Assembly (NCBI GenBank): GCA_965222605.1
Contig: OZ244960.1
Coordinates: 2,240,001 to 2,304,000 of the forward strand
Direction of reading: 5' to 3'
DNA: 64,000 nt
DNA from: Candidatus Latescibacterota bacterium
GTDB lineage: Bacteria; Latescibacterota; UBA2968
Shown here: in pieces, positions 22,038 through 41,677 of the stretch
Layout of the letters: each line of letters starts with the position of its first letter
How positions within the stretch are numbered: position 1 is the stretch's first letter
Program-made: the position numbers and the translations under genes
The notes under the pieces: model-generated
The model's database searches: none
Told to the model about the DNA's origin: nothing
What the model saw: the letters and a program-made list of their open reading frames with translations, nothing else

Positions 22038-22049
22038 CAGGTATCTCCT

Positions 22050-25825: not shown

Positions 25826-27322
25826 TCATCCGTCGCCCCGCGCAACGACCTCCGACCAGGGGACGCCCGAATGGATGTCCTCGTGCGCTTGAGACCAGGT
25901 CTCAGTTTCATAACCGGGGACATTTGCCGGAGTCAATCCCTCTGGAAGCGAGCCGTGCAGAAGCGGCGGACAGGAGCGGAAACGCAGCAGATCGATCAGC
26001 AGCTTTTCCCGGATCTCGCGGTAGTCGGGATCATCCCACCGGTTGATGAGTTCGCCCGGGTCAACGCGATGGTCGTAAAGTTCGCTCTCATCCCCCGTAA
26101 TATCGAGCGTAATCCGAAATTCCTCCGTACGCATCGACATATGGTGATATGACTTGACGTGTTCGCAGAGCACGGCCTGCTTATTCCAGGTATCTCTCCC
26201 CTGAAGAGCGGGAATCAGGCTTCTGCCCTGAACAGTATTGGGCGCCTCAATACCCAGAAGATCGGTCAAGGTGGGATAGAGATCGACGGATTCCACAAAG
26301 CTATCGAAAACCTCCCCCTGCGGCAACGCCGCGGGATAGCGCAGAATAAACGGCACCCGATGGATGCACTCGTAAAATCCGAGATTTTTCCAGATCAGGC
26401 CGTGTTCGCCGGCAAAATCGCCGTGGTCTGCCGAATAAATGACGATGGTCTCCTCGAGAATGCCCTGGGATTCCAATTCTTCGAGAATGCGTCCAATCTG
26501 CTCATCAATCAGGGAGACCAGTCCGTAATAGTGGGCGATGCACTTTTGTAGATGTGCCCTATCCCTGGGCCTGAAGGGATAGGGAAATTCTCCCCGTTTG
26601 GCCTGTTGCTGGCGTTCGGACTTGCCCTCAAACTCATCCGCAGCATTGGCCGGCACCGTAACCTCCTCGGGATCGTACATGCGATCAAAGGGCACGGGCA
26701 CGGTAAGCGGATCGTGTGGTCTTGAAAAAGAGATACATGCGAAGAAGGGTTTGCCCTTATCGCGATCCCGAAGATATTTGACAGACTCATTCCCACACCA
26801 GACCTCGACCGAATGCGCCAGTGGCAGGGGCGAAGTCACCGCACATTCGGGGTGCTTTGTCCACTTTTTGTTCAGATCAAAATCATCTGCCACCCCGGCT
26901 TCTACCAGACTGCGAAAATAGTCGCAACTCAACGGGTCGTCGGGCAGGGCGTCGGTCATGTGGTCGAAACGGTGATAATCGAACTCGCGGCGGGACCAGT
27001 GGACTCCAATATGCCCCTTGCCGATGATAGCTGTTTGATACCCCACCCGCTTCAATGTAGATGTGATCGGATTCAGGTGATCGGGCGGTTCGTCAGTGTT
27101 GCTGTGCCGCCGGTGAAAATGCTCGTACATCCCCGTCATGTAGGAAATCCGGGATGGACCACAGTGCGCGCTATTGCCATACGCCCGCGAAAACCGCACC
27201 CCCTCGTGCGCCAGGCGATCCATGTTGGGCGTCCGAAGCAGGGGTTCCCCAGCGCAGGACATCGTGCGCGCATTGTGCTGGTCGGTCAAAATCCAGAGGA
27301 TGTTGGGTTGTTCAGTTGCCAT
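25826..27322 (-). CDS. Sulfatase-like hydrolase, no signal peptide
   Basis: PNILWILTDQH, CGPSRISYMTG, IGKGH, PHDP, ADHGDFAGEHG. Confidence 0.9.
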   Translation of the reverse strand: MATEQPNILWILTDQHNARTMSCAGEPLLRTPNMDRLAHEGVRFSRAYGNSAHCGPSRISYMTGMYEHFHRRHSNTDEPPDHLNPITSTLKRVGYQTAIIGKGHIGVHWSRREFDYHRFDHMTDALPDDPLSCDYFRSLVEAGVADDFDLNKKWTKHPECAVTSPLPLAHSVEVWCGNESVKYLRDRDKGKPFFACISFSRPHDPLTVPVPFDRMYDPEEVTVPANAADEFEGKSERQQQAKRGEFPYPFRPRDRAHLQKCIAHYYGLVSLIDEQIGRILEELESQGILEETIVIYSADHGDFAGEHGLIWKNLGFYECIHRVPFILRYPAALPQGEVFDSFVESVDLYPTLTDLLGIEAPNTVQGRSLIPALQGRDTWNKQAVLCEHVKSYHHMSMRTEEFRITLDITGDESELYDHRVDPGELINRWDDPDYREIREKLLIDLLRFRSCPPLLHGSLPEGLTPANVPGYETETWSQAHEDIHSGVPWSEVVARGDG

Positions 27323-27352: not shown

Positions 27353-29365
27353 TTACCAGCCGTGAACATAATGACCGTCTCCAAGAGGGAACCAGATGTA
27401 GTCAACAAGGGAGGAAAGGAAGACCCCCGCGACGTAGCCTATCGGGAGACCGATGAAGAAAGGAGTCGCACGGCGATACAGACCAATGCCCCCGATGCGC
27501 ATAATCAGGCTCTTGGCGGCCCAGGTCAGGAAGATGGAGAAGGCGTAGATCCGGGGACCCGTGGTATTCTGAAAGGCCAGACCGAGGGGATGGAGGGGCC
27601 ACCAGGGCAGGCGGTTGCGCAACAATATCATGAGCAGAACCTCCAGGGCGCCGAAAAGACAAACGCCCACCTTGGCGGGGTCGAAGACGGTGAGATCGCT
27701 CTCCAGGACTTTCGCCGCCAGTCTGTTGTACGGAGCGACCAGTGCTCCCGCCGGGTTAAAAGGTCCTTTGTGCAGGTTCTGCCCACCGTAGATGTAGGGC
27801 AGGTAAATCACGAAGAAGAAGGAGGCAAACAGGCCCGCGAGAAACGCCAGCAGAACGAGCCAGACGACGAGCGTTCGCCTGCGGGTGAGGCTGCTGAGGA
27901 GCTTGAAGTGATGGGGCAGCGCCGGCCAGGCCGGGATGCGGAGGTTACCGAAGAAAACTCCCGTGTTGACCATGCCGATGCCGACGAGGTCCCCCCGGGA
28001 AAGGTTCGCGGTGCCGACCAGGGTCTCCAGCATAGGTCCCCCTTTTACGGCCACCGGAAAAAGGTGGGTAAATCCGCTGGCGGCCGTGAACTTGGCAACG
28101 GTCAGGTAGGCGATGTAGAGCATTAGAGTGTGGGCGATGGCCATTGGGAGCGATATGCCGAAGGCGTGCATCAAGCCGACGATGAAGACGGTAGAGATCC
28201 CGAACCCGAGCAGGGCAATCCGATAGGACACAGTCCCCTCGTCCTTCGGAGCACCCACGCCCCCGAGTGCAGTGCGCCAGACCCGCTGCAGATGGCTCCG
28301 CGCGACCCAGACCGACCAGAGCGCCAACAGGACCATTGCGCCGTAGCCCTCCAGGTCGAGGATTCCAGTGGGAGGAGCCTGCTGCCCGGATAGTCCAATA
28401 CCGAAGCCAGTGCGGTTCATGATCCCCAGTTTGAAGATCGCCAGCAGGCGGAACACCCAGAGGCTGAGCAGGATATCCAGGGTGCAGAAGTAGGTAAGCC
28501 CGATCACCGTAGGCAGGACCCGGAGATAGACCGGAGGGAAGTCCCTGCTTACATACACCGCCTTGGTCAGGTAGAATCCAAAAACGGTGATTTCAGGCAA
28601 TACGACCGCGAAGTAACCTACGATATTCCAGAGAAAGATACCAAATACCAGAAAAAAGCCCACCCAGAAGACGCCATCTCGGAAGAGGCGGGGTACCCGC
28701 CCCGGCTCGTCGAATCCCGACGTCAACTCCACGGCAAATTGTGCAAGCGGATAGGTCAATCGCTCGGCATCCTCCCACTGGCGCTGGAGGATGATAAACG
28801 CGCAGATGCCGGCTGTGAGCACGGCGATGGGGATCGCCGTACCCCAGAAGAGGGGCCTGACCCACCCGATCCAGGGCACGGGTGTCTCGGGCGCAAGGCC
28901 GTCGTAATAGGGTCGGATAACGGCCGGAGACGCATCGGGCATATACCACCAGGGCAGGGCGTCGAAGAACGCCTCTTCCCACCGGTTCTCGGGGGAGGCG
29001 AAGTAGGTGGGTGCGGCCAGGGTACTCGCCCAGTAGCCGGTAAAACCCTCGAAGGGGATGTTTCCGGCGATCCAGGACATGCTGTAGATCACCAGGAGTT
29101 CAGTGCCGCTCAACGCCGCCCGGGGGAGGAAGGCCTTCAGACCCAGGTTGGCGAAGAGCCAGAGGCCAAACGGGATCAGCATCGCCATCGGAAACTGGGA
29201 CTTGTTCAAGGAAAAGGAGCCCATGACCATGCCGGCATAGTCGGCGTAGATGTTGAGAATTACGACAGTGGCCGCGCCCAGGAGAACGGAGCGGAGGGTG
29301 ATGCGGGCGGGCGCCTTCTCGGGAGCCTGGCTGGCGTTGGTGCCAAGAGCTGAAGAATCTTGCAT
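27353..29365 (-). CDS. Polytopic inner-membrane protein, DUF6785/DUF6784-like, putative transporter
   Basis: Many TM segments; ITLRSVLLG, YFASPENRW, QWEDAERLTYPLA, WWPLHPLG, RIGGIGLYRR..PFFIGL, C-terminal GH.VHGW. Family name is from recall. Confidence 0.75.
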   Translation of the reverse strand: MQDSSALGTNASQAPEKAPARITLRSVLLGAATVVILNIYADYAGMVMGSFSLNKSQFPMAMLIPFGLWLFANLGLKAFLPRAALSGTELLVIYSMSWIAGNIPFEGFTGYWASTLAAPTYFASPENRWEEAFFDALPWWYMPDASPAVIRPYYDGLAPETPVPWIGWVRPLFWGTAIPIAVLTAGICAFIILQRQWEDAERLTYPLAQFAVELTSGFDEPGRVPRLFRDGVFWVGFFLVFGIFLWNIVGYFAVVLPEITVFGFYLTKAVYVSRDFPPVYLRVLPTVIGLTYFCTLDILLSLWVFRLLAIFKLGIMNRTGFGIGLSGQQAPPTGILDLEGYGAMVLLALWSVWVARSHLQRVWRTALGGVGAPKDEGTVSYRIALLGFGISTVFIVGLMHAFGISLPMAIAHTLMLYIAYLTVAKFTAASGFTHLFPVAVKGGPMLETLVGTANLSRGDLVGIGMVNTGVFFGNLRIPAWPALPHHFKLLSSLTRRRTLVVWLVLLAFLAGLFASFFFVIYLPYIYGGQNLHKGPFNPAGALVAPYNRLAAKVLESDLTVFDPAKVGVCLFGALEVLLMILLRNRLPWWPLHPLGLAFQNTTGPRIYAFSIFLTWAAKSLIMRIGGIGLYRRATPFFIGLPIGYVAGVFLSSLVDYIWFPLGDGHYVHGW

Positions 29366-29450
29366 GGGATCTGTTAAAAAAATATCGCAATGGCGCAAAA
29401 GCCACCCATTCAAACCAAAAGGTTCCAGGTGGGTAAGCTTTGTACCTGAG

Positions 29451-29488
29451 ATCCCCTCGGCTCCGTCTAAAAGGGAAGCCGAGGGGAT
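29451..29488. terminator. Strong GC hairpin downstream of the porV-like gene (terminator or mRNA-stabilising stem)
   Basis: ATCCCCTCGGCT ... AGCCGAGGGGAT, a 12-bp perfect stem; no U-tract on the minus strand. Confidence 0.5.
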
Positions 29489-29509
29489 TTCGCGTTTTCA
29501 GCCCGGCGG

Positions 29510-30493
29510 TTACAGCGAGCCGGAAAAGCTCAGACGGATCGGGGCATCGAAATATTTGCCGAAGTTGGAGTAGGCGATGTCCAGCCGAATATTTCGACCT
29601 GAGAAGGTGCCCTTCAGCCCTGCGCCGACAGTCCACGATTCTGCATCGTAGTCAAACTTATAGCCAGCGCGCAGCGCGACGATATTCTTCAACCACAACT
29701 CGCCGCCCAGATTATAGCGCTGGTCGCGGTCGGTGAAGTAAGCCCCCTCGAAGGAGGCGGTTAGCGACACTGGGTCGCCCAACTCGCCGATGAACTCCAT
29801 CGAGGTGCCCAGATTGAACACCACCGGGAATTCCGCGGGGTCGCTGTGGATCTTCATCTCGTTGCCCAGGTTGTTGATGCCCATGCCGATGCGGAGGCTG
29901 CGGTAGCCAGTGTGCAGCAGCGTGTAGAGGCTCAGCGAGGTCCCCCCCAGCTTTTCCGGGCCAAGATTGGACTGGACGAATGAGAACTTGGCGGCCGCAG
30001 AGAGCTTGTCGGTCAACTGACGGGCAAAAATCACACCCAAGGCGTAGTCGCCTACATCCAGCATTTCTCCTGTGCCATCGGGCTCCAGGATGGTGGTCCG
30101 TTCGATCTCTGGAGGTTGGTGGCTAACCACGGAAATGCCCAGCATAGCGTTCCACCCGACATTGAGGGCAACAGCGCCAGAGTAGAACTCGGAGTCCACC
30201 AGCCACTGCGCGTATCCAAAGGAATAACCCAACCGCCGCACCGAGGTGATACCGGCCGGATTCAAATAGATCGCATCCATGCCCTCAGCAACAGAGGTAT
30301 AGGCGTCGCCCATCGCCGCAATACGGGCACTTGGTGTGACCTTCAGGAAGGCGAGCGTGCTCGGTCCTTGCTTTTCAAAAGCTCCGGTAACCTTGTCATT
30401 AAACAGGTGCGGCACATCCAGATCTTGCTGTGCCTCCGCTCCCAGCGTGCCGCAGACGGCAATCGCGATCGCAAAGAAGAGAATTCTTTTCAT
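29510..30493 (-). CDS. PorV/PorQ (UPF0164) family outer-membrane beta-barrel
   Basis: Signal peptide; AFLKVTPSARIAAMGDAY..A...AIYLNPAG signature; LRAGY; alternating beta strands. Confidence 0.85.
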   Translation of the reverse strand: MKRILFFAIAIAVCGTLGAEAQQDLDVPHLFNDKVTGAFEKQGPSTLAFLKVTPSARIAAMGDAYTSVAEGMDAIYLNPAGITSVRRLGYSFGYAQWLVDSEFYSGAVALNVGWNAMLGISVVSHQPPEIERTTILEPDGTGEMLDVGDYALGVIFARQLTDKLSAAAKFSFVQSNLGPEKLGGTSLSLYTLLHTGYRSLRIGMGINNLGNEMKIHSDPAEFPVVFNLGTSMEFIGELGDPVSLTASFEGAYFTDRDQRYNLGGELWLKNIVALRAGYKFDYDAESWTVGAGLKGTFSGRNIRLDIAYSNFGKYFDAPIRLSFSGSL

Positions 30494-30521
30494 AGTTGAA
30501 ACCATCCTTTATTTAAAACAG

Positions 30522-32882
30522 CTACTTGTGCAGGATAAAGGCTCCTCGAGACAGCTTGCCCATGCTCTCCTGTACTTCGGATTCCACGACAAAATAGTAC
30601 AGTCCGGAAATGACTTCTCCACTGAGGAACCGGTCCTTTAACTCCCAATTGGTCTCGCCGAGAAGCGGGTTGTCGTGTTTGATTATCGCTACCATATCGC
30701 CCGATACCGAAAAGATGCGGATCGTACACTTGTGGGGTAATCCCACAAACCGCAGGCTCTCGGCGCCCTGGTAACTCTGGCCGTCCAGAGTTACACTGAA
30801 CGGGTTGGGCACCACTCGCACCTGCCGCTCCAGGTTGTCGCTCATTATGCTACTGGCCATCTTCGGGCGCAGCGGCACATTGACCTTTGTCTCTGGCGCG
30901 GAGTAGCCGCCCTCCAGTCCGCTCACGGTGAGGTGTTCCCGGACTTTCGGAGGCAGATCGGCCAGCGTCACTGACCCTTCGCTCCAGTCCTGCTTGGGAG
31001 AAGCAACGGCGCGGACGTTGTAGATGTAGCGGAAGCCCGCCAGGGAATTGGTATCTACATACCTATACGTTCCAGCACCTGTGGCCGGGACCTCTTCCAC
31101 CAGGTCCCAAGGGCCGTATTCCTGGAAGGTAGATCGGTAGATCCGGTAGGCCACAATGTCGGCCTCCCCATATTCGGGGTTGATTACCTTTTCCGCGGCG
31201 TCGGTCCACGAGAGCTCGATGTTGGCATCTCGGTTATTCCCCGCCTGGAAGTCCACGTCCGGTGGGGCGTTGGGGATGCGTAAGCCACTGTCGTATGCGA
31301 ACTGGGCGTGCGATAGGTTTTGCAGGAGGGCCTTTTCACCCTGGGCGAGCACCTGCTTGCGGGCATCGTCATTCAGACCCCTTTCCCCCACCCCGAATGC
31401 CCAGCTCATCTGGTCCCTTGCAAAACCGGTCCTGGAATCGACGTTGCTCTCTTCTATGTCCCCTGCGTGGCCAAAGACGTAGGTGACCACGATCTTGGCC
31501 TTATCTCCGGGCGCCAGGTCGTAAGGACCGTAGATCTGGTCGGACCAGACGACCCCCTCTGCAGGAGGATCGGCCATTGAGGGAGCCGTGTAAATGTCGT
31601 AGAGTTCGGCCATACCTACGCCCTTGCCGATGGGGTCGTCGATATTATCAAGCCCGTGTGCCCTGAACCAATGCCCCAGAACCTGGTCGCTCCTCGGCTC
31701 CACATAGCCTTGCGCCAGATCGTTCGCGTTAAAGACGTGGCTGGGGCCGGAATTGCGAAACGCCAGGGGGGCAAATCCGGCGTATTCCGGCGCGATCGGT
31801 GTGCCCTTTGGCCGGTCTCCGCTGGCTGGGAAGGAACCACCGGGATTTTCAAGGTCGGGATCAAATGGATCTCCTGTGTCATCCTCAAAGCTATTGGTGG
31901 TATTCCCATCATATACATAGGTGATGTATTTGCCGGAAAAGTCCGCAGCGGTCAGGCCGCTGAGAGAATTGGGCTGAAAGCCGGGAGAGCCCGAGAAACG
32001 GAAGAAATCGTCTAGCCCACCCGACCTGTTGTATCGGATCATCCCCCCTTCGTGCCCCCATCGGTAGGAGGTACCAGTGGAGTTGACGTAGAGGGTGTTG
32101 TTGAAGCCGAAGTAGGTGTCGTTGAGCTGTTTGTCGCCCCGGTTTTCGAACTCGATATCCACGATAATGAAGTCGTCGAAGTCCTGGTGGCTCCAGGCGT
32201 ATATCTTGCGCGTCATCACGATGTTGTGCTTGAACCGCGTCTGCGTGATGTGAATCTCCTCAGGCGCGTCCTGCACGGGTGGATAGATATGGAAGTCGTA
32301 ATTGTGAATCTCGTAGGGGTCGGCAGCCGTGGCATCGCCCGACTTGGGCGTTGCGCCGGGATACCAGTTGGACATGCCCAGGCCGACCTTGATCCCCCTG
32401 GGGGGTACGACCGTGCGGATGCCCCAATTGGCCTCCGGGCCGTTCAGGATGTCGTAGATCATCGGGAACACATCCTCCGAGGGGTGGCGCGGACCGGTCC
32501 ATGAGACGTGCTTCTCTCCATCCACGTTCGTGAGCACCAGCACCCCATTGCCGGATGAGTGCATGGTGCCTTCGGACTTGTTCGCACCGTCGGACCAGGC
32601 CTTGTCACCCCAGTATTCCATGTAATCGGTAGGGTTCATCAGGGTGTAAAACCCCATCATCATGCCGGGGTAGATCAGACGGAATGCAGCCCGGCCCGCG
32701 CTGTCGGCATAGTGCATGCCGGAAAACCCGTAGTTGTGAAAGGTCTCCCAGACAAGCGAGCGGGTCATCATGCGGCTGGCGTAGTAATCGAGCTGGGCCG
32801 AAGCGGTCAGGGCGCCCGACAGCAGCAACGCCAGCGCCAGCAGGCCCACCCCAAGCCATTTCTTTATTAGAGATACAGACAT
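30522..32882 (-). CDS. Secreted protein with FN3-like domain and T9SS type-A-like/FlgD-Ig C-terminal domain
   Basis: Signal peptide; ELSW..YRIYRS..Y.YVD FN3 pattern; C-terminal VRVVPNPF..LRFVGLP..CTIRIFSVSGDMV..W...SGLYYFVVE. Confidence 0.78.
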   Translation of the reverse strand: MSVSLIKKWLGVGLLALALLLSGALTASAQLDYYASRMMTRSLVWETFHNYGFSGMHYADSAGRAAFRLIYPGMMMGFYTLMNPTDYMEYWGDKAWSDGANKSEGTMHSSGNGVLVLTNVDGEKHVSWTGPRHPSEDVFPMIYDILNGPEANWGIRTVVPPRGIKVGLGMSNWYPGATPKSGDATAADPYEIHNYDFHIYPPVQDAPEEIHITQTRFKHNIVMTRKIYAWSHQDFDDFIIVDIEFENRGDKQLNDTYFGFNNTLYVNSTGTSYRWGHEGGMIRYNRSGGLDDFFRFSGSPGFQPNSLSGLTAADFSGKYITYVYDGNTTNSFEDDTGDPFDPDLENPGGSFPASGDRPKGTPIAPEYAGFAPLAFRNSGPSHVFNANDLAQGYVEPRSDQVLGHWFRAHGLDNIDDPIGKGVGMAELYDIYTAPSMADPPAEGVVWSDQIYGPYDLAPGDKAKIVVTYVFGHAGDIEESNVDSRTGFARDQMSWAFGVGERGLNDDARKQVLAQGEKALLQNLSHAQFAYDSGLRIPNAPPDVDFQAGNNRDANIELSWTDAAEKVINPEYGEADIVAYRIYRSTFQEYGPWDLVEEVPATGAGTYRYVDTNSLAGFRYIYNVRAVASPKQDWSEGSVTLADLPPKVREHLTVSGLEGGYSAPETKVNVPLRPKMASSIMSDNLERQVRVVPNPFSVTLDGQSYQGAESLRFVGLPHKCTIRIFSVSGDMVAIIKHDNPLLGETNWELKDRFLSGEVISGLYYFVVESEVQESMGKLSRGAFILHK

Positions 32883-32909
32883 TGAAATTCCTCCAGTGTA
32901 TGTTCAAGG

Positions 32910-35900
32910 TCAAAACTTCAGGCGTGCGCCGACCACCCAGTTGCGGGGATATCGCCCCAGTCCCCGGTCGTAACGGTCTATATCGCCATCCCCATCCTTC
33001 AAGTAGGTGCCGTTGTCCGGGTCTGGCATCTGCTTCCCCCACTGTATCCAATCGAAACCGGTAGTCATGTCGGCCTTGTCGTTCCAGAGGTTGCGGATCT
33101 CCAGGAAAGCGGTGGCTGTCATAGCGCCGCCAATGTAGAATTCCCTCTCCAGGTTGATATCGCTGACCAGAGAGATCGGCCCGGTCCGTCGCTCCCGGGG
33201 ACCTGTGGGAGGCGTATAATTGAAGGGAATGCCGGTATGGAGCCGATAGAGCAACGATATCCGGAGACTGGCCAGAGGCGCAATGTGAAAGTCAGAGGGA
33301 CTGGAGAAGAGAAATTGCCCGCTGAGGATATTGCGCCGGTCGATACCGCTCTGCAGTGTCGGCGTATTGTATCGGCCAATGGTATAGGCATAAATTCCGG
33401 GCTCGAGTATCTCCACCGGGGCATTCCAGTAGCCATCGGACAGAGGCTCGCCGATTCGGCTATCGTAATCCTTGAGTTGTGCCCTGGCCCTTTCGGCCAG
33501 TTGCACCCGCTCCTCCTGGGTAGGCGCATGGGGGACCTCCTGTCCGTCCGCCCGCGCATCCACACCCACGAAGTATTCGTCACTCATGACGTATGAGGGA
33601 CCGACCACGTGGTAGGCTCGCCAATTGCGGAAGCCGGAGTTATTCATATTTTTCGTCCACGCGAGGTTGTACGCTACGTTGAACGTGACCATGTTGCTGA
33701 ACTGCTTCCGCAGAGAGACCTCGAACCCCCGGGACCACTTCCGACCCCGGTTGCCGGATCCTCTCGAAGAGACGCCGTCGTACCCGAAAGCCGGTTCCTC
33801 CAGGCGCCAGGAGGTGGAGCCGTTGGTGATAATCCCCATCTGATCCCTGTAAAAGGCGGTGACGCTGGCAACGTATTCGCCGGCGAAGTTCCAGTCAAAC
33901 CCGGCCTCGAAACTGGTTGATTTTTCCGGCTCGATGTCGGACATCCCGGAGACCCCGTGGTGGATCTGCTTCAGGCTATTGTACTTCTCCATCTGATCGA
34001 TCTGTCCGTTCCCGTTCACGTCCCTGTCCTCTCCGGTCCCGCCGAATTCCCGCTGGTAAAAATTCTGGATATCGGGAAATTGTCGGAAGACACCCGTGAA
34101 GAACCGGATGGTGGAGCGATCAGTGATGGGATGAGAGACCCCGATCCGTGGACTCCAGGCGTGCAAAATCGGAAGGTCTTCGGTTACGGGCATGTTTCGA
34201 AAGCGCGTCAGGGATTCGTAGTGTCTGAACATCCAGAGGGTGGCGATGTTGCGCCAGCCCTTTACCGGGTCCATCGCGTCGAACCGGATACCGGCGTTGA
34301 TCACCAGGCCCTCAAACTCCATCTTGTCCTGGATATAGACCCCGTACTGGATGGGATGAGCCCGTTCCATGCCGATAATCGGGTCGCCCGAACCGCCGGC
34401 AAGGCGGATTGTAAAAGCGCGGGCCTGGCGGGAGCCCTCCTCGTGGTGGTAGAGGCCGTAGCGAGTGATCTCAAACCCGGTTTTGACGAAGTGCCCCTTG
34501 GTGACCTGGCTGCTCAGATCGGCTTTGAGGCGCACCCGCTTGTTATCCATATACTTAAAGGAATAGATGTCCCTCGGCAGGAAGTACCCCTTGCTATCGC
34601 GCCGCACGCCTTCGGTCGCAGAAGGCACGCCACTGGTGTCGGTCAGAGTTTGCTGCCAGTTGAGGCGCACTTCATAGAAGGTCGTGGGGGATAGGGTGTG
34701 GGTAAAGAGGAGATACGCCATCCTTTCGCTGAAGTTCTGTTTGCCCGCTGCGGAGTAACCCTCGGGCAGGAAGAGGTTGCGCCCACCCCTGGTGATACCC
34801 CGCACGCCCCCGTCGGTATCTCGCTGCTGCCCGGCGAAGGGATCATCGGGATCGATCCTCGTGTTGGACCCTCCAATTCGCCTGCTGCCCCTGGTCCCGG
34901 GGTCAAAGCCCTCGTAGTAGGCGAACACCCCGCCCAACTTCACCTTGAAGTTGGGGGACGGCCGGGCGACGAAGTTGCCGAAGGTCTGGATGTTAAATGG
35001 CTCTCGGTTGAGCGCGCTGGGATAGATGGGGGCCTTGCGACTGTGGGCCGCATTCATAAAGAAGGAGACATCCCTGGCGATCGGTCCAGAGGCCGAACCC
35101 TCCAAATAGTGTCCGAACACACCCGTGTAGTCGGTGCGTTCATGCACCTTGCGCCCGGTCTCGGGATCGGTCTCGTTCGCAAAGGCAGGGTCATTCCAAT
35201 CCACCTTGCCTGCGTGAAAGGGGTGATCGTAGATGTTCGGTCCCCAGTGCCTCTTGGCCGGCAGGTCCAGGCGGTACTCCCCAAAACCCGTATAGGCGTC
35301 CCGGCCCTCTTTGGTGACCAGGCTGATCACGCCGGCCTGGGCGTTGCCGTACTCGGCCTCCATCCCACCGGTGACCACCTGCACCTCCTGCAGGGCGCTT
35401 TTGTTGATGCCCATCCAGTTGGGGGCAACAAATCCGTCGTTGTTGACGAGCCGAACCCCGTCAATCTCCACAAAGGTATCGTTTGAGCCAGCCATAGACG
35501 CATTGTTGCTGCCCCGGATGCGGAGGTTGCCGTCCAGCGACACGCCCGGCTGTAGCGCGATCACCTCATTGAGGGTGCGCGCAAGAGGCACGTTCTCGAG
35601 GTCCTCGGCATCGACGACATAACGGCTGAAGGTCCGATCCGGCTCCACTGGTGGTCGCTCGGCAATCACCACCAGCTCTTCGGCCTGTAGCGCGGCCTCC
35701 GCCAGGTTAAAATCGACGGTGGTGGTGAAGTCTGCCCGCACGGCCACATCCTGTTTGGTCGCCGCGGTATAACCGACCATCGAGGCTTCCAGTTTATACC
35801 TGCCAGGTTCGACCGACAGGATGAGAAAATAGCCTTCTGCATCGGTCGTAGCACCCCTGCGGGTGCCCTGGATCACCACGTTGGCCCCGGGCAACGGCGC

Positions 35901-36020
35901 ACCTGAGGCGTCGGCCACAACACCGTTGAGTTTGCCGACTATCCCGGCCGGTACATCTGTGGGCGAGAAGGCGACCAGCACCCCGACCAGCAACAGGCAA
36001 AAATTATAAAGGTATTTCAT
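32910..36020 (-). CDS. TonB-dependent receptor-like outer-membrane protein with carboxypeptidase-regulatory-like N-domain
   Basis: Signal peptide; PLPGANVVI..T..GATTDAEG; plug LQPGV..IRG..TGGMEAEYGNAQAGVISLVTKEG; YIQDKMEFEGLVINAGIRFD; SPRIGVSHPI; C-terminal Phe. Confidence 0.9.
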   Translation of the reverse strand: MKYLYNFCLLLVGVLVAFSPTDVPAGIVGKLNGVVADASGAPLPGANVVIQGTRRGATTDAEGYFLILSVEPGRYKLEASMVGYTAATKQDVAVRADFTTTVDFNLAEAALQAEELVVIAERPPVEPDRTFSRYVVDAEDLENVPLARTLNEVIALQPGVSLDGNLRIRGSNNASMAGSNDTFVEIDGVRLVNNDGFVAPNWMGINKSALQEVQVVTGGMEAEYGNAQAGVISLVTKEGRDAYTGFGEYRLDLPAKRHWGPNIYDHPFHAGKVDWNDPAFANETDPETGRKVHERTDYTGVFGHYLEGSASGPIARDVSFFMNAAHSRKAPIYPSALNREPFNIQTFGNFVARPSPNFKVKLGGVFAYYEGFDPGTRGSRRIGGSNTRIDPDDPFAGQQRDTDGGVRGITRGGRNLFLPEGYSAAGKQNFSERMAYLLFTHTLSPTTFYEVRLNWQQTLTDTSGVPSATEGVRRDSKGYFLPRDIYSFKYMDNKRVRLKADLSSQVTKGHFVKTGFEITRYGLYHHEEGSRQARAFTIRLAGGSGDPIIGMERAHPIQYGVYIQDKMEFEGLVINAGIRFDAMDPVKGWRNIATLWMFRHYESLTRFRNMPVTEDLPILHAWSPRIGVSHPITDRSTIRFFTGVFRQFPDIQNFYQREFGGTGEDRDVNGNGQIDQMEKYNSLKQIHHGVSGMSDIEPEKSTSFEAGFDWNFAGEYVASVTAFYRDQMGIITNGSTSWRLEEPAFGYDGVSSRGSGNRGRKWSRGFEVSLRKQFSNMVTFNVAYNLAWTKNMNNSGFRNWRAYHVVGPSYVMSDEYFVGVDARADGQEVPHAPTQEERVQLAERARAQLKDYDSRIGEPLSDGYWNAPVEILEPGIYAYTIGRYNTPTLQSGIDRRNILSGQFLFSSPSDFHIAPLASLRISLLYRLHTGIPFNYTPPTGPRERRTGPISLVSDINLEREFYIGGAMTATAFLEIRNLWNDKADMTTGFDWIQWGKQMPDPDNGTYLKDGDGDIDRYDRGLGRYPRNWVVGARLKF

Positions 36021-36079
36021 AGAAAAACCTCCTTATCGCGTAAAGTCAAAATCTGAAATGAGACATTGCCAGATACGGG

Positions 36080-36793
36080 CTACTGCTGGGTATAGAACTT
36101 AAACCGCACACCGACGTTGAGCTTCTGGAAGGGGAAGACCTCTTCCATTCCCCAGGCCTCCAGCGGACGCACACTGCCCAACACAATGTTATACTGCCCT
36201 CTCAAGTCGATGGCCAGAGATTGGGAGGTGAAAAACTGCACGCCCAACCCTACATTGAGCCCCAGTGTCATGTGCTGGTCGGCCGTAGGTTCCAGCAGCA
36301 GATTCTCGTTCAGAGGCGGCGCGGGCTGACCGGGCCAGATCAAGCCACTGACCTCGTTCTTATACCGAAAAGACCCCGTGCCCACCACCAGATAGGGCGC
36401 CCTCCCCCCGCCTTTTGACAGCTTCCCACCCCCCTGATTGAAATGATACAGCCAGCTAATCGTCCCGCCCGTCCAGGTCATCTTCGAACTGGCCTGGGGG
36501 CTGGCATACTCCTGCTTGTCGATCGACCAGAGAAATCTCCGGTTCTCCAGTTCCCCGCCGCTGTATTTGACGTAATGTCCCTCCACTTCGGCGGTCCACC
36601 GCTCGTTGAGGACGTAGAGCACCGTCCCACCGAGATTGATACCACCGGAGGGAAACCATTCGTTTAATTTGAAGGTCGGCAGATCGTAGCTGGCAGCGAC
36701 GCCAAAGCCCCACGTCCCACCAACTTGCGCAGCGGCACCAAAGGGCCAGGCCAGCAGCAAGACCCCCACTAAGAGCAACATCCTATATCTCAT
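36080..36793 (-). CDS. Outer-membrane beta-barrel protein (OmpW/OmpA-membrane-like)
   Basis: Signal peptide MRYRMLLLVGVLLLAWPFGAAA behind AAGGAGG; amphipathic strands PYLVVGTG, GLNVGLGVQFF, NVGVRFKF. Confidence 0.78.
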   Translation of the reverse strand: MRYRMLLLVGVLLLAWPFGAAAQVGGTWGFGVAASYDLPTFKLNEWFPSGGINLGGTVLYVLNERWTAEVEGHYVKYSGGELENRRFLWSIDKQEYASPQASSKMTWTGGTISWLYHFNQGGGKLSKGGGRAPYLVVGTGSFRYKNEVSGLIWPGQPAPPLNENLLLEPTADQHMTLGLNVGLGVQFFTSQSLAIDLRGQYNIVLGSVRPLEAWGMEEVFPFQKLNVGVRFKFYTQQ

Positions 36794-36922
36794 AGTTCCT
36801 CCTTTTTTGAGACCTTCAATCCCCTCGAAAACCACCCAAAATACTATTAGATCTTCCCGCGCTTTACCTCCTTTCAACAGGCATAACAGTTTACCAAATA
36901 GCACTTTAATAAGAGATTTAGT

Positions 36923-36952
36923 TTGACAATAAAAAACAACCCGTTTTACTTT
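36923..36952 (+). promoter_or_regulatory. Sigma70-like promoter firing antisense to the TBDR operon leader
   Basis: TTGACA(36923-28)-N18-TACTTT(36947-52). Confidence 0.55.
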
Positions 36953-36957
36953 TTGGC

Positions 36958-37053
36958 TTGGATATGCGAGGAGGTGACAACGCCTCTTTATATATCTCCG
37001 AAGCCGTTAGCTCCAGTCTCGCCAAAGGTCGGTAGCTAACGGCTCTTTTTTTT
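36958..37053 (+). ncRNA. Candidate ~95-nt cis-antisense small RNA
   Basis: Lies between a plus-strand promoter and a plus-strand intrinsic terminator. It has two predicted stem-loops, the first containing AGGAGGTG, and no convincing ORF. Confidence 0.5.
37002..37053 (+). terminator. Rho-independent terminator on the plus strand
   Basis: AGCCGTTAGCT / AGCTAACGGCT 11-bp perfect stem followed by C and T8. Confidence 0.75.
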
Positions 37054-37122
37054 GGCCAGCTTGAACTCTCCCCATACACCGATCTGATGGTGCCCAGCAG
37101 TTCATCAGAACGATCTTGAGAA

Positions 37123-37151
37123 AAGATAAACCGTAAAAATTCCTGTGTCAA
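37123..37151 (-). promoter_or_regulatory. Sigma70-like promoter of the barrel-TBDR-CTD-PorV operon
   Basis: Minus strand TTGACA-N17-TATCTT. Confidence 0.6.
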
Positions 37152-37198
37152 GTTATTAGTCCAAGTAAACATGCCCTTCGTCAATATAGAGTGCATAT

Positions 37199-39190
37199 TC
37201 ACCAACTATGCACGCCATGTCCTTGTCCGGGGAACCAGACCGCGTCTATGAGGAAACACCAGACGACCCCAAACGTGTAGCCGATCAGCAGACCCAAAAA
37301 CAGGGGCATGGCCCGGCGGTAAAGGGCCACACCTCCAACGCGCATCAGGATCGCCTTGCAGACCCAGGCGAAGAAGACCGGGATGACGATGGACTTAGAG
37401 TTGTCCGAGGCGGATATGGCCAGACCGATGGGATGGATCGACCACCAGGCGAACCGATACCTCAGGAAGGTGAGCAGACCCATCAGAGCCGCGCCAATGC
37501 CAAAGAAGATCATCCGGTCCAGGGCCATTGGCTTGGGTGTCCTCATATGCGACAAGGTAGAGGAGAAGACATTCTTGGGGTTCCCTTTGTAGTAGAACGC
37601 AAAGTTGTAGGCCCCGTGGATATATCCCAGATAAAGCGTAAGCCAGACCGAGGCGACAAGCCCGACCAATGCACCGACCACTACCCAGAACACCAGCATG
37701 CGTCGGTTTCTACGAACCAGGTCGCCCAGCTTGACGGCCTGCGCCAGCCCCGGAGCGAACAGGCCCCGGATATAGTCGATCAACGAATAGGAAAGGAGCA
37801 TAGAGGTGAGGGTGGACCCTGTCATCACGTCGGTCCCCCGCATGTCCATCGCAAAGGCCTGTGCGGTGATGGGGGCCTGCGTGGTGACCAAGCCGGTCTC
37901 GGAGACGATTCGGGCCATCCCGATGTAAATGATTCCCGTGCTGGCCAGGAAAACCAGCGCCGTGAGGAGGTCCATGCCGGATTGATGGATCAGAAACAGG
38001 ATATACAACAGGCTCAGAAACAGGCCCAAAACCGATGTGCGGTAAGAGAGGATCTCCTGGCGGTCGTCGGCTGGATAACGGGAATTGAGAGCCTTCAAAA
38101 AGACATCCCTCAGGTGGTGCCGGGCCACCCAAAGCCGCCAGAGAACCAGGCTGGCCATCGCGCCAAAACACTGCCAGGACTGAATCGCCTGATCGGCGGT
38201 GAAGGAATCCGAGGGTTGTTCGAGTTGCAAACCCATGCGGTTGATGATGTGCCCTTCCACCACGTGAATCAGGAAGAAGAACCAGACGCTGAAGAGGACC
38301 TCCAGGTTGGCGAAGTAGGCAAAGCCGAGCGTGTAGAACTGCAAAGGGCGGATCCGCAGAGACGGCGAGTAGCGCGTAAATTGGAAGTAGCCCCCGGAAG
38401 GGATGAGGGCGATATCGGGGACGGCGGGGAAAAACCAGGAGAGGGATTTCCAGAAGAAGAGTCCAAACGCCAGAAGGGCCGCAACCCAGAAGAGCTTGCT
38501 CCGCATCAAGGTCGGCCAGAGGCGCTCCGAATCGGCGTCCCGGGCCAATTCAGTGGGTATGGAGACCAGTGGGTACACGAGTTTCTCGTGCTCGACCCAC
38601 TGCTTTCGAAGGATGACCATCACACACGCCGTCCCGACCAGGATAGCCGCGATGAGGCTGCCCCACCACACCAGCGGGACCAGCCAGACCCTCCAGGGAG
38701 CCTGTGCGCCCGCAGGCAACCCCTCGTAGAACATCCTCAGGGCCTCGCGGTCAGTGGGCACCATCCAGGCGCTGAGGTGGGGGTGATAGAATTCGGCCCA
38801 CTGGTTTTCGGGGGTGGCAAAGTAGAACGGGGAGGTGATGATGCCCAGGAAAAAGCCGGTAATGCCGGAGCCAGGAACAACCGACCCGACAATGCCGATG
38901 GCCACGACTGTCAAAAGCTCCGAGGGGGAAAAGGCAAGCCGCTGCCGACAGAGCTTGAGCAGAGGATTGAGGAACCCCACCAGGAGGAAGAAGAGGGCCA
39001 GGAGCGGAAGCTGAAAGTAGGCCAGATTGAGCCGGGTGGACTTGACGACCGCTTCGGCATAAGTCACCCAGAGGTTGGTGAAGATCACAATGGAGAGTCC
39101 CAGAGCGACTGCCCGGAATGTGACCCCACGCTCCGAGGATGGACTGGCCCGCGTTTCGGGCCGTGGAGTGGCAATTACATTCTCAGACAC
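37199..39190 (-). CDS. DUF6785/DUF6784-like polytopic membrane protein (paralog 2)
   Basis: GVTFRAVALG, YFATPENQW, RKQWVEHEKLVYPLV, WWSIHPIG, GGVALYRRAMPLFLGL, GHGVHSW; AAGGAGG RBS with GTG start. Confidence 0.78.
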   Translation of the reverse strand: MSENVIATPRPETRASPSSERGVTFRAVALGLSIVIFTNLWVTYAEAVVKSTRLNLAYFQLPLLALFFLLVGFLNPLLKLCRQRLAFSPSELLTVVAIGIVGSVVPGSGITGFFLGIITSPFYFATPENQWAEFYHPHLSAWMVPTDREALRMFYEGLPAGAQAPWRVWLVPLVWWGSLIAAILVGTACVMVILRKQWVEHEKLVYPLVSIPTELARDADSERLWPTLMRSKLFWVAALLAFGLFFWKSLSWFFPAVPDIALIPSGGYFQFTRYSPSLRIRPLQFYTLGFAYFANLEVLFSVWFFFLIHVVEGHIINRMGLQLEQPSDSFTADQAIQSWQCFGAMASLVLWRLWVARHHLRDVFLKALNSRYPADDRQEILSYRTSVLGLFLSLLYILFLIHQSGMDLLTALVFLASTGIIYIGMARIVSETGLVTTQAPITAQAFAMDMRGTDVMTGSTLTSMLLSYSLIDYIRGLFAPGLAQAVKLGDLVRRNRRMLVFWVVVGALVGLVASVWLTLYLGYIHGAYNFAFYYKGNPKNVFSSTLSHMRTPKPMALDRMIFFGIGAALMGLLTFLRYRFAWWSIHPIGLAISASDNSKSIVIPVFFAWVCKAILMRVGGVALYRRAMPLFLGLLIGYTFGVVWCFLIDAVWFPGQGHGVHSW

Positions 39191-39220: not shown

Positions 39221-41677
39221 TTACCCACGCATCGCCTTGTAATCAACCGTCGCAAACGCGCCCTCCCACTCCTTTCCAAAAGCAATCACATCTTCCTCGC
39301 CCTCTTTCAGCGATACCCCGACCACATTCGGCGCCACCTTTCGCACACATGGCTTTGTCTCACCTTCTCGATGCGACACAATAACCGCGAGAAATCTGGC
39401 CTCGCGGCGCGGTTCGGTAGAAAACCAGAGATTATTGTGTACGCGAGGAGCACCAGCCCAGATATCGTCCTCTTTGGATGCATTCACCTGAGCCTCAATT
39501 TCACTGTACAGATCCTCTCCCGTAATTGGATTCCGATACCCTTTCTCCCCACACATATTTTCCACCTTCAAAGGACCAGTCTCCCCCAGGTGATGCACCT
39601 GCACCTGCACCTCATCAATCGCATAATCGAAAGCCTCTCCAGATATCGCCACCGGCACATCCGGTTGAATGTGATACAGCCAGGAAAACACCGCTGCATC
39701 CGACGCAAGAGCCAAATCGTCAAATACCACAAAATAGCGATCTCTCACAAATAGGAAATGGCGGTAAAACCGCGCCAGATTGGGATGCTCGGTATAGGCA
39801 TTCCGCACATCCCCACACACATAGACCATCTGCGGCGTCTCCTTCCATGCCACAATGCGCCCCGCGTTTGGCAACCCGGCTGAACCGCGTACCTCGCCCT
39901 GTCCTGTACCGTCAATCAACACCGTATTGTGCGACTGGCTCGACCGCGCCACCGCATCCCGATTGCTCTTCTTGCCCCCGCCCGTAGCAATCGTCTTTCC
40001 ATAGGCAAACAACTCAAAACCGCCATTGCTCCTGTGACTGTGGCTATAACCCCCGCGCGGTCGGCAAGTGAACACAAACCCCACACCCTTGCGAAAAGAC
40101 TCGAGCTTCTCCGGAGACTCTGAATACCCCATCGCCCAACCGGCAACCGGCAAGAGGTGCGTACGCGGGTATTTGGTCTCCGCCTTTGGTTCGGCAAAAA
40201 AATGCTTCAACGCATATTCGATCCAGGGCCGGGGATAATCCGTGACCTCAGTAATACCGGGTTCCCCCAGATTCAGGGGCTTCACCTCGCCCGTCGCCAA
40301 TACCCGTTTCCACTCCCTCCACGCCTCCAGCACGCGCCCATCCCCCGTCAAATAAGCCAACTTTCTGCGGTAAGCGTGCTGCCCGCGTTCGTAATAGCGA
40401 TACTGAAAAGCTATATCCCCCCACGCGGGTCTCAAAACCCCGACAGGCGCCAGATTTAAAAGAAAGTTTCCCATACCCCGGTAAAACGGATTGCGTTCCA
40501 GATGAAGTTCGGGATGCATCATCGCGGCATAAAGAGATGTCGCCACCAGAGAACCGAACTTCCAGCTACTATAGGAAACACCTTCGTTCCATCCCTCATC
40601 CGGACCAAACCCGGTGCCCACGCCCGTGATATAGTGCAAACCGAGCTCTGCAAATTGCCGCGCCGCCTCCGAATGCTCGGCAACGGCCAGAGCACCCGTC
40701 AGCGTCCACGTAATATTCTCCCAGGGATGGGAAGCCGGCGCCACGGCAATGCCATCGGCGCGAATCTCGCCCTCATGCCGCCAGGAATATTCATTCAGCG
40801 TATGCTCAATTCGCCAATCCAGCGAGTGAATAATCGTCTCGCGCTCAGCTTCGGAAAGAATCGGGTACAACCAGTCAAAGCAGACCCCCATAAACTCCGT
40901 AATTTTAGTACAGAATTTTTCCCCATTCCCAAGTCCCTCCGGCGAAGAATATCCGCCGGGCTGGTAACGCGCCATAGTCGATAGCCGATCTTTCATCGCC
41001 AGGTACTTTTCATCCCCCGTCAGCATATACGCAAACGCCATATTCGTGAGAAACTGTGCGTATTCGGGATAAATAAAGGGGAACGCAAAAGGTCCTATAT
41101 CCGCATCCGTCTCTGGAAAATTCACAAACCAGTCCGCCTTCAACGTCTCATCCGCCAAGCGAATCGCCTGCCGCGCAATCTCCCCACATTCCAAATCCTT
41201 ATCCTGAAGTTCTCTCAGATCCTGCAAATTCTCAGGCGTAAAAATAATCCTCGGATGCCCATGCACCATCTGCTCAATCGCCGTGCGATCCCACGCAACC
41301 GCATCGTGCGAAAGCTCAAAGCTCCTCACCTCGCTCTCGCGCTCATAAGGCGTTCCCGCATCGTACGTCACCCGCCAGAACCACTTGCGAGCACCTGTCA
41401 AAACCGGAAGCGCATTGTAAAAATTATACGGCGTCTGTTTAACATCGACCACCGGATCCTTCAAATCGGGTGTGCGCCCAATCCGAAGCCTGAACCTCCG
41501 CTCTATCGGCAGCGGTCCCTGCGGAATAATCGCCGGATCAAACGGCCAGCTAAACCTGGGCGGATTCACATCGCACACCTGACCATCTGCCGGGCGAAAC
41601 CCCATATACCGGGGATAAATATGCCGCTCGTCCATCGCCAACGAGTCTTCGCAACCGACGTCTATTGATTTATCCAT
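39221..41677 (-). CDS. DUF4962 / heparinase II/III-like polysaccharide lyase, no signal peptide
   Basis: NPPRFSWP, HPRIIFT, GWNEGVSY, SHSHRSNGGF.L.AYG, SHNTVLIDG.GQ, RHFLF..RYFVVFDDL; start set behind GGAGG. Confidence 0.72.
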   Translation of the reverse strand: MDKSIDVGCEDSLAMDERHIYPRYMGFRPADGQVCDVNPPRFSWPFDPAIIPQGPLPIERRFRLRIGRTPDLKDPVVDVKQTPYNFYNALPVLTGARKWFWRVTYDAGTPYERESEVRSFELSHDAVAWDRTAIEQMVHGHPRIIFTPENLQDLRELQDKDLECGEIARQAIRLADETLKADWFVNFPETDADIGPFAFPFIYPEYAQFLTNMAFAYMLTGDEKYLAMKDRLSTMARYQPGGYSSPEGLGNGEKFCTKITEFMGVCFDWLYPILSEAERETIIHSLDWRIEHTLNEYSWRHEGEIRADGIAVAPASHPWENITWTLTGALAVAEHSEAARQFAELGLHYITGVGTGFGPDEGWNEGVSYSSWKFGSLVATSLYAAMMHPELHLERNPFYRGMGNFLLNLAPVGVLRPAWGDIAFQYRYYERGQHAYRRKLAYLTGDGRVLEAWREWKRVLATGEVKPLNLGEPGITEVTDYPRPWIEYALKHFFAEPKAETKYPRTHLLPVAGWAMGYSESPEKLESFRKGVGFVFTCRPRGGYSHSHRSNGGFELFAYGKTIATGGGKKSNRDAVARSSQSHNTVLIDGTGQGEVRGSAGLPNAGRIVAWKETPQMVYVCGDVRNAYTEHPNLARFYRHFLFVRDRYFVVFDDLALASDAAVFSWLYHIQPDVPVAISGEAFDYAIDEVQVQVHHLGETGPLKVENMCGEKGYRNPITGEDLYSEIEAQVNASKEDDIWAGAPRVHNNLWFSTEPRREARFLAVIVSHREGETKPCVRKVAPNVVGVSLKEGEEDVIAFGKEWEGAFATVDYKAMRG

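Follow-up and report, generated by a model that had tools for sequence, protein, structure and literature searches.

Results

Gene organization of the locus

The DNA analysed here (the window) is a stretch of 64,000 nucleotides, positions 2,240,001 to 2,304,000 of contig OZ244960.1 (assembly GCA_965222605.1), from the genome of a sponge-associated Candidatus Latescibacterota bacterium. It holds a four-gene cassette (29510-36904, minus strand) that encodes a small outer-membrane barrel, a TonB-dependent receptor (TBDR), a secreted protein of 786 residues, which we call the partner, and an outer-membrane barrel of the PorV/PorQ family. Coordinates are window positions unless they are said to be of the host genome. 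The cassette and the membrane-protein genes that flank it all lie on the minus strand:

37199..39190, minus: DUF6785+DUF6784 polytopic membrane protein of predicted OPT/Yellow-Stripe fold, 663 residues, upstream of the cassette (Pfam and AlphaFold2 (AF2) model)
37123..37151, minus: sigma-70-like promoter match, TTGACA/17 nt/TATCTT, matching the consensus at 10 of 12 positions, within the 294 nt between the cassette and the next gene upstream
36080..36904, minus: small OmpA-type outer-membrane β-barrel (PF13505); likely start at ATG 36796, giving 238 residues
32910..36020, minus: TBDR, 1036 residues, with a SusC-like N-terminal layout (CarboxypepD_reg and Plug)
30522..32882, minus: secreted partner, 786 residues, no Pfam family, fold by AF2
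30525..30845, minus: C-terminal domain (CTD) of the partner, residues 680-786, a divergent type IX secretion system (T9SS) CTD (hhalign)
29510..30505, minus: PorV/PorQ-family outer-membrane barrel, private to the partner (NF033709)
27353..29413, minus: DUF6785+DUF6784 polytopic membrane protein of predicted OPT/Yellow-Stripe fold, 686 residues, 96 nt downstream of the PorV-like gene (Pfam; fold modelled on the paralog at 37199-39190)

The four cassette genes are separated by gaps of 59, 27 and 16 nt, and signal peptides of their products were called by eye from hydrophobic N-termini; that of the small barrel follows directly on ATG 36796. The gene positions in an earlier note, made from the letters of this DNA, were all borne out on the minus strand. 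So was its statement that a polytopic membrane gene of about 665 residues lies on either side of the cassette: both flanking genes encode DUF6785+DUF6784 proteins.

The same note had placed a promoter at 37123-37151. A site is indeed present there, but it is not distinct from chance, since four promoter-like sites were found in the region against 5.0 expected from shuffles. We therefore regard 37151-37123 as a consensus match only. The leader (36905-37198) holds a 10-bp inverted repeat, GCCGTTAGCT ... AGCTAACGGC, at about 37018-37062 (seen by eye), and a terminator-like site on the plus strand at 37027-37044. RNA-library contigs from related strains have indels in this leader, and 59 nt at 36837-36897 are swapped for 164 letters. 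An Rfam scan of the whole window gave nothing at gathering score.

The cassette recurs within the host genome

The host genome is a single contig of 6.34 Mb. Open reading frames (ORFs) of at least 100 residues (13,152) were called and searched with the window proteins by phmmer, which returned 26 paralogs of the partner, 34 of the PorV-like barrel, 22 of the small barrel, 35 of the TBDR and 56 of the DUF6785 protein. Screening by script for a TBDR, a partner and a PorV gene in that order and on the same strand gave 26 cassettes. Every one of the 26 partner paralogs sits between a TBDR and a PorV-family gene, in line with the proposal of the earlier note that the CTD protein has a dedicated PorV paralog. 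The small barrel is directly upstream of the TBDR in 22 of the 26 cassettes, and all 22 of its paralogs occupy this place. A six-frame search with the 786-residue protein likewise gave about two dozen paralogous genes, each adjoining a PorV-family place over cut-off; the PorV-family model itself has 40 matches in the genome, with 34 places over cut-off. The recurrence of the four-gene order (22 times, or 26 if the small barrel is not required) exceeds chance. Two more places with a TBDR and a PorV gene around an intervening gene, at host-genome positions 2123632-2130385 and 3512268-3518760, may be divergent cassette types; phmmer recognized neither middle gene, and the six-frame search gave that of the former a weak match to the partner (E = 1.2e-12).

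Pairwise-distance matrices of the four components, computed for the 22 full cassettes, correlate with Mantel r of 0.80-0.87, and none of 999 permutations was as high; a nearly identical, recent duplicate pair among the 22 inflates r somewhat. TBDR and partner co-diverge (r = 0.87) as tightly as barrel and partner. Because the matrices of all four components correlate, we conclude that the four-gene unit has duplicated and diverged as a block. The cassettes at host-genome positions 552733-560160 and 4049305-4056687 hardly differ (identities of partner and PorV reach 1.00), a sign of recent segmental duplication; transposase genes lie beside several cassettes (loci L118, L124, L128, L129, L131 and L136).

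In the same genome the SusD families gave one match to PF07980 (SusD_RagB), at 33 bits, and none to PF14322 (SusD-like_3). The lone match (host-genome positions 3841329-3845574) lies directly downstream of a 970-residue TBDR and has a TAG within the matched frame; it may be a decaying SusC/SusD pair.

The gene order is kept in related genomes

A pattern scan of one genome per species yielded 213 confirmed relatives of the partner, of which the best 80 loci were analysed. These are not independent, being drawn from about two dozen related genomes; 68 are labelled Latescibacterota, and the 12 labelled otherwise are assigned to Neomarinimicrobiota, KSB1, 'Gemmatimonas'/Gemmatimonadetes metagenome-assembled genomes (MAGs), others and one Poseidoniales. 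Neighbouring genes were recognized with hidden Markov models built from the host genome's own paralogs, which may miss divergent genes of other phyla, and positions were taken relative to the best-scoring partner gene per locus. A TBDR gene is directly upstream of the partner in 73 of 74 testable loci and a PorV-like gene directly downstream in 76 of 77, so the TBDR-CTD-PorV order on which the earlier note had built its hypothesis is kept across neighbourhoods. The small barrel precedes the TBDR in 68 of 70 testable loci, and a DUF6785 gene follows the PorV-like gene within 3 kb in 57 of 72. The locus under the Poseidoniales label (L108) is a 3.85-kb contig, from a MAG classed as archaeal, with genes for a TBDR and a member of the partner family; the contig is probably bacterial and was binned wrongly.

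Among 61 sampled genomes of the phylum, 32 have the partner family: all 16 from the host's own family do, and none of 13 from another; per-genome counts in this sample rest on at most 17 scored candidates each.

The partner is predicted to be a carbohydrate-binding-type supersandwich

The partner matched no Pfam family, its relatives that carry names are all 'hypothetical protein', and its profile gave only a chance-level match among PDB sequences (E = 0.065). The alignment of the family comprised the query and 37 of 47 hits, after removal of one 96% duplicate, four near-duplicates, one fragment and four weak or partial hits. The AF2 model (pLDDT 87.5, pTM 0.88) predicts a signal peptide, a β-supersandwich (about residues 28-535), a helical linker, an FN3-like sandwich (about 540-635) and the CTD (680-786). 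VIA, a structure search independent of Foldseek, matched residues of about 28-590 to the N-domain of a bacterial glucoamylase (1lf6_A, Z 17.6, 237 residues aligned, rmsd 3.1), to GH94 (2cqs_A, Z 17.6) and to GH116 (7w2t_A, Z 17.5), with the GH65 N-domain close behind. Galactose mutarotase-like proteins (Z 12-13.5) and a GH174 fucanase (9k1g_B, Z 13.7) were also matched. The highest-ranking of these matches are to N-domains without catalytic function, from GH15, GH94 and GH116 enzymes. Foldseek matched FN3 domains and 126 columns of PorZ (5m11). The partner is thus modelled with confidence as a carbohydrate-binding-type supersandwich of the galactose-mutarotase/glucoamylase-N type, followed by an FN3-like domain and a CTD. 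In neither sequence nor predicted fold does it resemble SusD: it matches no SusD Pfam family, and the fold is all-β.

The partner's tail is predicted to dock on the PorV-like barrel

The assignment of the last cassette gene to the PorV/PorQ barrels, made in the earlier note, is confirmed by the family model NF033709 (145.4 bits against a cut-off of 90; 144.8 in the six-frame search). The protein lies under the equivalog cut-offs of both PorV (NF033710, 48.8 of 250 bits) and PorQ (NF033711, 59.8 of 220 bits), and its profile matches the solved Flavobacterium johnsoniae PorV (6h3i_F) with E = 1.1e-17. A fusion search found no PorV-like domain within longer proteins at E ≤ 1e-5, which is weak evidence.

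The C-terminus of the partner had been described as a T9SS type-A-like CTD. The window copy has no match to the curated model TIGR04183 at E ≤ 1 and does not reach the type-A sorting-domain models; its only match is to the PorZ tail, with E = 0.018. Among 38 family members, CHU_C (PF13585, the type-B CTD) is matched by 12 at E ≤ 0.1 (best E = 1.6e-5; none for the window copy), the PorZ C-terminus model by nine (best E = 2.5e-4) and the type-A models PF18962 (Por_Secre_tail) and TIGR04183 by one each. The description is nevertheless right at the level of homology, because a profile-profile comparison matches the tail to the host's own type-A CTDs: hhalign aligned the last 107 residues of 23 partners with the 14 TIGR04183-positive tails of the host genome over 67 columns, with a probability of 97.3% and E = 2.5e-11. 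The motifs PNPF, I.IY..G..V, W and SGIYF occur in the same order in partner and type-A tails. At the level of sequence comparison, then, the partner tail is homologous to type-A CTDs and forms a distinct, longer subclass.

A complex of the barrel (residues 26-331, 23-row alignment) with the tail (residues 672-786, 23 rows from the same loci) was modelled in three runs. Each gave an ipSAE of 0.92, and the best of three controls gave 0.01; the runs agree on at least 93% of contacts, with a partner pLDDT of at least 76. The ipSAE mark used here is reached by 116 of 157 solved complexes and by two of 215 mismatched pairs, and is only a rough guide for complexes modelled with their own alignments. 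The predicted interface uses family-invariant residues: VVPNP 690-694 and G728 of the CTD, F53 and W101 of the barrel. The CTD-PorV interface anticipated in the earlier note thus appears in the model, which supports, but does not prove, docking of the CTD on the co-encoded barrel. There is precedent for such an arrangement: according to PMC10202324, PorZ keeps its CTD to bind PorQ, and cognate PorV-like barrels have been speculated to shield CTDs from cleavage.

The small barrel and the TonB-dependent receptor

The window copy of the small barrel matches the Pfam family OMP_b-brl (PF13505) with E = 3.4e-5, below the gathering score, and 17 of 19 members of its family match too (best E = 6.4e-9). 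Its profile found a single designed protein among PDB sequences (E = 1.4e-4), with no passing stretch. The TBDR has the N-terminal layout of SusC/RagA, a carboxypeptidase-regulatory-like domain (PF13620/PF13715, residues 31-118; PF13620 E = 1e-21) followed by a plug (PF07715, residues 130-230, E = 2.5e-9). Between the two lies ELVVIAE, picked out by eye, which resembles a TonB box. The SusC/RagA model TIGR04056 is matched at model positions 2-207 only, and the score of 83.8 bits misses its cut-off of 368.25.

DUF6785/DUF6784 proteins have a predicted transporter fold

The flanking membrane protein at 37199-39190 was modelled by AF2 with a pLDDT of 84.4 and a pTM of 0.87. Both structure searches led to the barley transporter HvYS1: Foldseek to 7wst_A (E = 1.2e-8, TM 0.61/0.67) and VIA to 7wsr_A (Z 22.6, 547 of 600 residues aligned, rmsd 4.1), with the next best match at Z 5.8. 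By sequence, none of 24 DUF6785 proteins matches an OPT family (PF03169 etc.) at E ≤ 10, and the DUF6785 profile has no match among PDB sequences. Judged from the model, DUF6785+DUF6784 is an OPT/Yellow-Stripe transporter fold. In the 24-row alignment the charged residues E91, E128, E202, R318, R357, H359, R579, K612, D649 and H658 are invariant. Fifteen of the 56 copies in the host genome are no more than 3.5 kb from a cassette, and 14 of the 26 cassettes have such a neighbour.

Type IX secretion genes of the host

The host genome encodes SprA, with matches of 492.5 and 133.7 bits in one frame of 2086 residues, over the cut-off. It also has a PorU-like gene (237 and 72 bits, under the 420-bit cut-off) and 14 matches over cut-off to the type-A CTD model TIGR04183. 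A translocon for the partner is therefore present in this organism.

Neighbouring genes and substrate context

The surroundings of the cassette include:

45186..47180: third DUF6785+DUF6784 gene (Pfam)
39221..41752, minus: DUF4962 and heparinase II/III-like protein (lyase-like; Pfam), 30 nt upstream of the DUF6785 gene at 37199-39190
20472..27322, minus: tightly spaced downstream array of sulfatase, Zn-dehydrogenase, GFO/IDH/MocA oxidoreductase, sulfatase and sulfatase genes, with gaps of 30, 166, 77, 26 and 12 nt

The earlier note had reported sulfatases, lyase-like genes and genes resembling glycoside hydrolases nearby. The sulfatases are there (25826-27322, 22050-23495, 20472-22037 and 50541-51998), as are the lyase-like genes (the heparinase II/III-like one and a DUF4955 gene with a pectate-lyase-like part at 4539-6470), but the window gave no match to a Pfam family of glycoside hydrolases. 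Because a heparinase II/III-like gene and three sulfatase genes share the same-strand array of the cassette, the evidence at this locus points to a sulfated glycan as substrate; for some of the other cassettes, peptide or glycopeptide substrates are possible.

Paralog searches of the host genome returned 163 sulfatases, 184 PhyH-type Fe/2-oxoglutarate dioxygenases and 107 GFO/IDH/MocA oxidoreductases. Sulfatases are not enriched within 5 kb of a DUF6785 gene (18 of 163) or within 8 kb of a cassette (13 of 163), nor are PhyH genes (17 and 18 of 184, respectively), the fractions expected from the genome being 9.6% and 8.8%. The PhyH expansion is unusually large, and four PhyH genes lie in the window (6483-7334, 13573-14448, 17605-18528 and 44031-45164). 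A survey of cassette flanks covered 94 of 131 flank ORFs at 20 of the 26 cassettes (33 ORFs of loci L138-L142 were left out, and four of the window cassette are covered separately above). It found PhyH, TPR/GWxTD, some sulfatase, FGE, GH4, beta-helix, heparinase-like and sugar-acid genes, together with transposases, housekeeping genes and many ORFs without any family.

Proteins with a GWxTD domain and TPR repeats, of about 820-870 residues, are encoded at 99-2564 (plus) and 15035-17650 (minus), and shorter GWxTD-only proteins also occur. Of 46 GWxTD paralogs in the host genome, 16 have a cassette within 8 kb, where about four would be expected (8.8%), and 14 of the 26 cassettes have one; the GWxTD protein may be a regulator or a fifth component. 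Proteins that correspond to the N-terminal part only of neutral/alkaline ceramidase are encoded at 41715-43163 and 61871-63142, and at 2-1357 and 6599-8194 of a Neomarinimicrobiota locus (L107); they adjoin partner-family genes in both organisms and have 14 paralogs in the host genome. An arylsulfotransferase (ASST) family protein with a dockerin type I domain at its N-terminus is encoded at 2626-4425 (minus).

Presence in RNA libraries

Thirteen RNA-library runs from four studies (sponge metagenome or coded organisms) contain 52-73% of the cassette's sampled words. Assembled contigs bridge the junctions between cassette genes, extending over 26940-36837 in run X5 (record 18) and over 26000-36837 and beyond in X9 (record 23); run X1 gave contigs at 28320-30742 and 35116-36706. 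In X1, X5 and X13, cover is lost upstream of about 36.7-37.0 kb and is about zero at 37022-38023. This hints only weakly at expression of the cassette and the downstream permease gene, with a start between the promoter-like site and the gene of the small barrel.

Discussion

A proposed surface module for nutrient capture

We interpret the cassette as one of 26 paralogous four-protein outer-membrane modules for nutrient capture that stand in the place of SusC/SusD, with anchoring, capture and import proceeding as set out below, and give this reading a probability of roughly 55%. The 786-residue partner would be exported by Sec and then by the type IX translocon (SprA). Its divergent CTD would stay uncleaved and dock on the PorV/PorQ-type barrel encoded with it, at the loops that face outward, much as PorZ does on PorQ, and this docking would hold the supersandwich at the cell surface beside the TBDR. 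There the partner would capture substrate or present it to the receptor, perhaps in contact with it as a lid; at this locus the substrate would probably be a sulfated glycan fragment. The TBDR would import the substrate with TonB energy, and an OPT-fold DUF6785/6784 permease would take the products across the inner membrane. The small OmpA-type barrel would be the fourth fixed component. The part of this scheme that we regard as well supported is a private PorV-type anchor for a T9SS-tailed TBDR partner, for which genetic linkage, co-divergence, homology and the complex model all argue.

Several observations weigh against the capture module as a whole. The success of the complex model may reflect likeness to the solved PorV-substrate complexes (6h3i, 8gl6 series), because the barrel profile matches a solved PorV. 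Moreover, since the predicted interface residues are conserved across paralogs, the interface fits generic docking and leaves the need for a private barrel unexplained. In the supersandwich, numerous polar and aromatic positions are also invariant across paralogs (among them D137, N194, Y200, D236/D237, Y322, D325 and D335), which is odd for a binder with 26 specificities; they could belong to an enzyme or a structural site, and may serve in metal binding, in an interface or in catalysis. Of the sulfatase and PhyH genes of the genome, 8-10% lie within 8 kb of a cassette, a zone that makes up 8.8% of the genome, and the flanks of 20 other cassettes are mixed, with no dense loci of carbohydrate-active enzymes. 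Contigs from RNA libraries are no proof of transcription or of transcript ends, as DNA may be present in such libraries.

The inner-membrane step, for which the earlier note had named DUF6785, fares unevenly. The predicted fold of a secondary transporter and the position after PorV in 57 of 72 related loci speak for it, but membership of the core unit does not hold: in only 11 of the 26 cassettes is the PorV gene followed on the same strand by a copy within 3.5 kb, and co-divergence with the cassette is weak (r = 0.26-0.36, with 15 to 54 of 999 permutations as high). We read DUF6785 as a frequent, exchangeable inner-membrane partner outside the core unit.

The earlier note had suggested looking for sprA and porKLMN, and sprA is present. 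Models of GldL, GldN and GldM (TIGR03517) have no host match, a result that is uninformative, the controls being likewise silent in every genome; PF12081 (GldM_1st) has none either, and its control matched three genomes, all under cut-off. Host matches to GldK/PorK cover the FGE-type domain only, and the best GldK-like place (host-genome positions 2640203-2641102) is not followed by a porLMN-like operon, as judged from the ORF layout only. With controls this weak, the absence of the T9SS motor and ring is not established.

Alternative explanations

The most serious alternative, which we consider unlikely and clearly behind the capture module, is that the four genes are co-regulated and their products do not form a complex. 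The PorV-like barrel would then serve the partner alone as a T9SS shuttle or anchor, in the way of PorP/SprF with SprB; the partner would be an independent enzyme or adhesin at the surface or released from it, and the TBDR merely an importer of products. The matches to the type-B domain CHU_C in 12 of 38 family members fit this view; type-B cargo genes are followed by cognate PorP/SprF genes, according to PMC10202324. The invariant polar residues of the supersandwich would suit an enzyme, and catalytic β-sandwiches are among the fold neighbours (GH174 9k1g_B and the mutarotases). Some partner-family genes also lack a barrel of their own: loci L105, L106, L113, L114 and L116 carry such extra copies, and the Neomarinimicrobiota locus L107, the exception to the conserved order, has a tandem pair of partner-family genes next to hydrolases and no adjoining TBDR or PorV gene, which counts against the capture module as well. 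Yet all 26 partner genes of the host lie between a TBDR and a barrel, the TBDR co-diverges with the partner as tightly as the barrel does, and the best fold matches are the non-catalytic N-domains.

Far less probable is an envelope-assembly module akin to accessories of the β-barrel assembly machinery (BAM), in which a FadL-type barrel holds a surface protein for biogenesis or display and not for uptake. A parallel is given by BamG, a 14-stranded FadL-type barrel whose extracellular loops bind the surface protein BamH (PMC12578637), and the small OmpA-type barrel has no obvious role in uptake. Against this stand the 26 diverged copies, each with its own TBDR and an intact Plug, the same-strand array with lyase-like, sulfatase and transporter-fold genes, and a cassette with no BamA-like gene. 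Least credible of all is the minimal secretion system that the earlier note offered as its alternative, with the barrels themselves exporting the 786-residue protein: homologues of PorL, PorM and PorN did go undetected by Bacteroidota-trained models, but their absence is not established with such silent or sub-cut-off controls, SprA, the PorU-like gene and 14 ordinary type-A cargo tails are in the genome, the partner's CTD is homologous to the latter, and PorV-family barrels act in the T9SS as binders and shuttles of CTDs, not as translocons of folded proteins.

Implications

Taken further, the findings raise the tentative idea, which we hold with less assurance than the capture module itself, that SusD-less relatives of the Bacteroidota build glycan capture from T9SS parts, in the form of a four-protein particle of receptor, small OmpA-type barrel, PorV-like barrel and a T9SS-exported β-sandwich binder, the uncleaved tail of which is plugged into that private barrel. 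The particle would exist in 26 substrate-specific versions duplicated en bloc and would feed a family of 56 OPT-fold permeases for oligosaccharides, in place of peptides or metal chelates. The receptor-partner-anchor module offers a concrete, testable answer to how polymers are captured without SusD in Latescibacterota, KSB1, Marinimicrobia and other uncultured relatives of the Bacteroidota. If it is correct, the role of PorV-family barrels extends from secretion to the permanent anchoring of uptake components, and the gene order provides a rule for finding utilization loci in phyla where SusD-based predictors of polysaccharide utilization loci (PULs) see nothing. The OPT fold would give two Pfam domains of unknown function an identity as transporters and suggests a new class of substrate for the OPT superfamily.

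Our literature search, which covered articles and not their supplements, found no description of the TBDR-partner-PorV module, of DUF6785 or of GWxTD, and nothing that links the OPT family with polysaccharide utilization. Articles that join PorV, TonB-dependent uptake, polysaccharide utilization and SusD are all on Bacteroidota, judged by title. An analysis of Latescibacteria from 2015 assigned Plug-domain proteins to the uptake of vitamin B12 and iron (PMC4454575).

Comparison with known systems

The DUF6785+DUF6784 protein shares its predicted fold with the OPT/Yellow-Stripe transporter HvYS1 of barley (7wsr/7wst) over 547 residues. It differs from that family in having no OPT match at the level of sequence and in reaching 56 copies in one genome, often beside loci of glycan type.

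Two T9SS arrangements resemble the pairing of partner and barrel. In the SprB/SprF type, as here, a type-B cargo gene is followed by its own barrel gene, and 12 of 38 partner-family members match CHU_C; the barrel of the cassette, however, is of the PorV/PorQ family, with no PorP-family match at E ≤ 1, and the CTD of the window copy aligns with type A. The other is the attachment complex of the Porphyromonas gingivalis T9SS, where PorV/PorQ-family barrels hold surface proteins through their CTDs, as in PorZ-PorQ and PorU-PorV (PMC10202324). The partner's tail matches the PorZ C-terminus weakly (9 of 38 members), Foldseek aligned 126 columns with PorZ 5m11, and the CTD is modelled as docked on the barrel. 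Unlike PorQ and PorV, the cassette barrel scores under both equivalog cut-offs, exists in 26 private copies and is coupled to a TBDR, with no link to lipopolysaccharide attachment; retention of the CTD would be a further shared trait, one that we infer for the partner.

SusC/SusD is the textbook explanation for glycan foraging by Bacteroidota. As in SusC/SusD (RagA/RagB), the cassette has a large TBDR with a carboxypeptidase-regulatory-like domain and a plug, followed by the gene for a secreted partner; there are many diverged copies per genome, and the cassette stands in a same-strand array with lyase-like and sulfatase genes. In contrast to a Bacteroidota PUL, no SusD-family gene directly follows the TBDR gene. 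The partner belongs to no SusD Pfam family, is predicted to be an all-β supersandwich where SusD has a helical TPR-like fold, and has no lipobox and instead a T9SS-type CTD. The unit further includes two extra barrels, and its TBDR misses the SusC/RagA cut-off (83.8 of 368 bits). The module is probably SusC/SusD-like in function but does not belong to that family.

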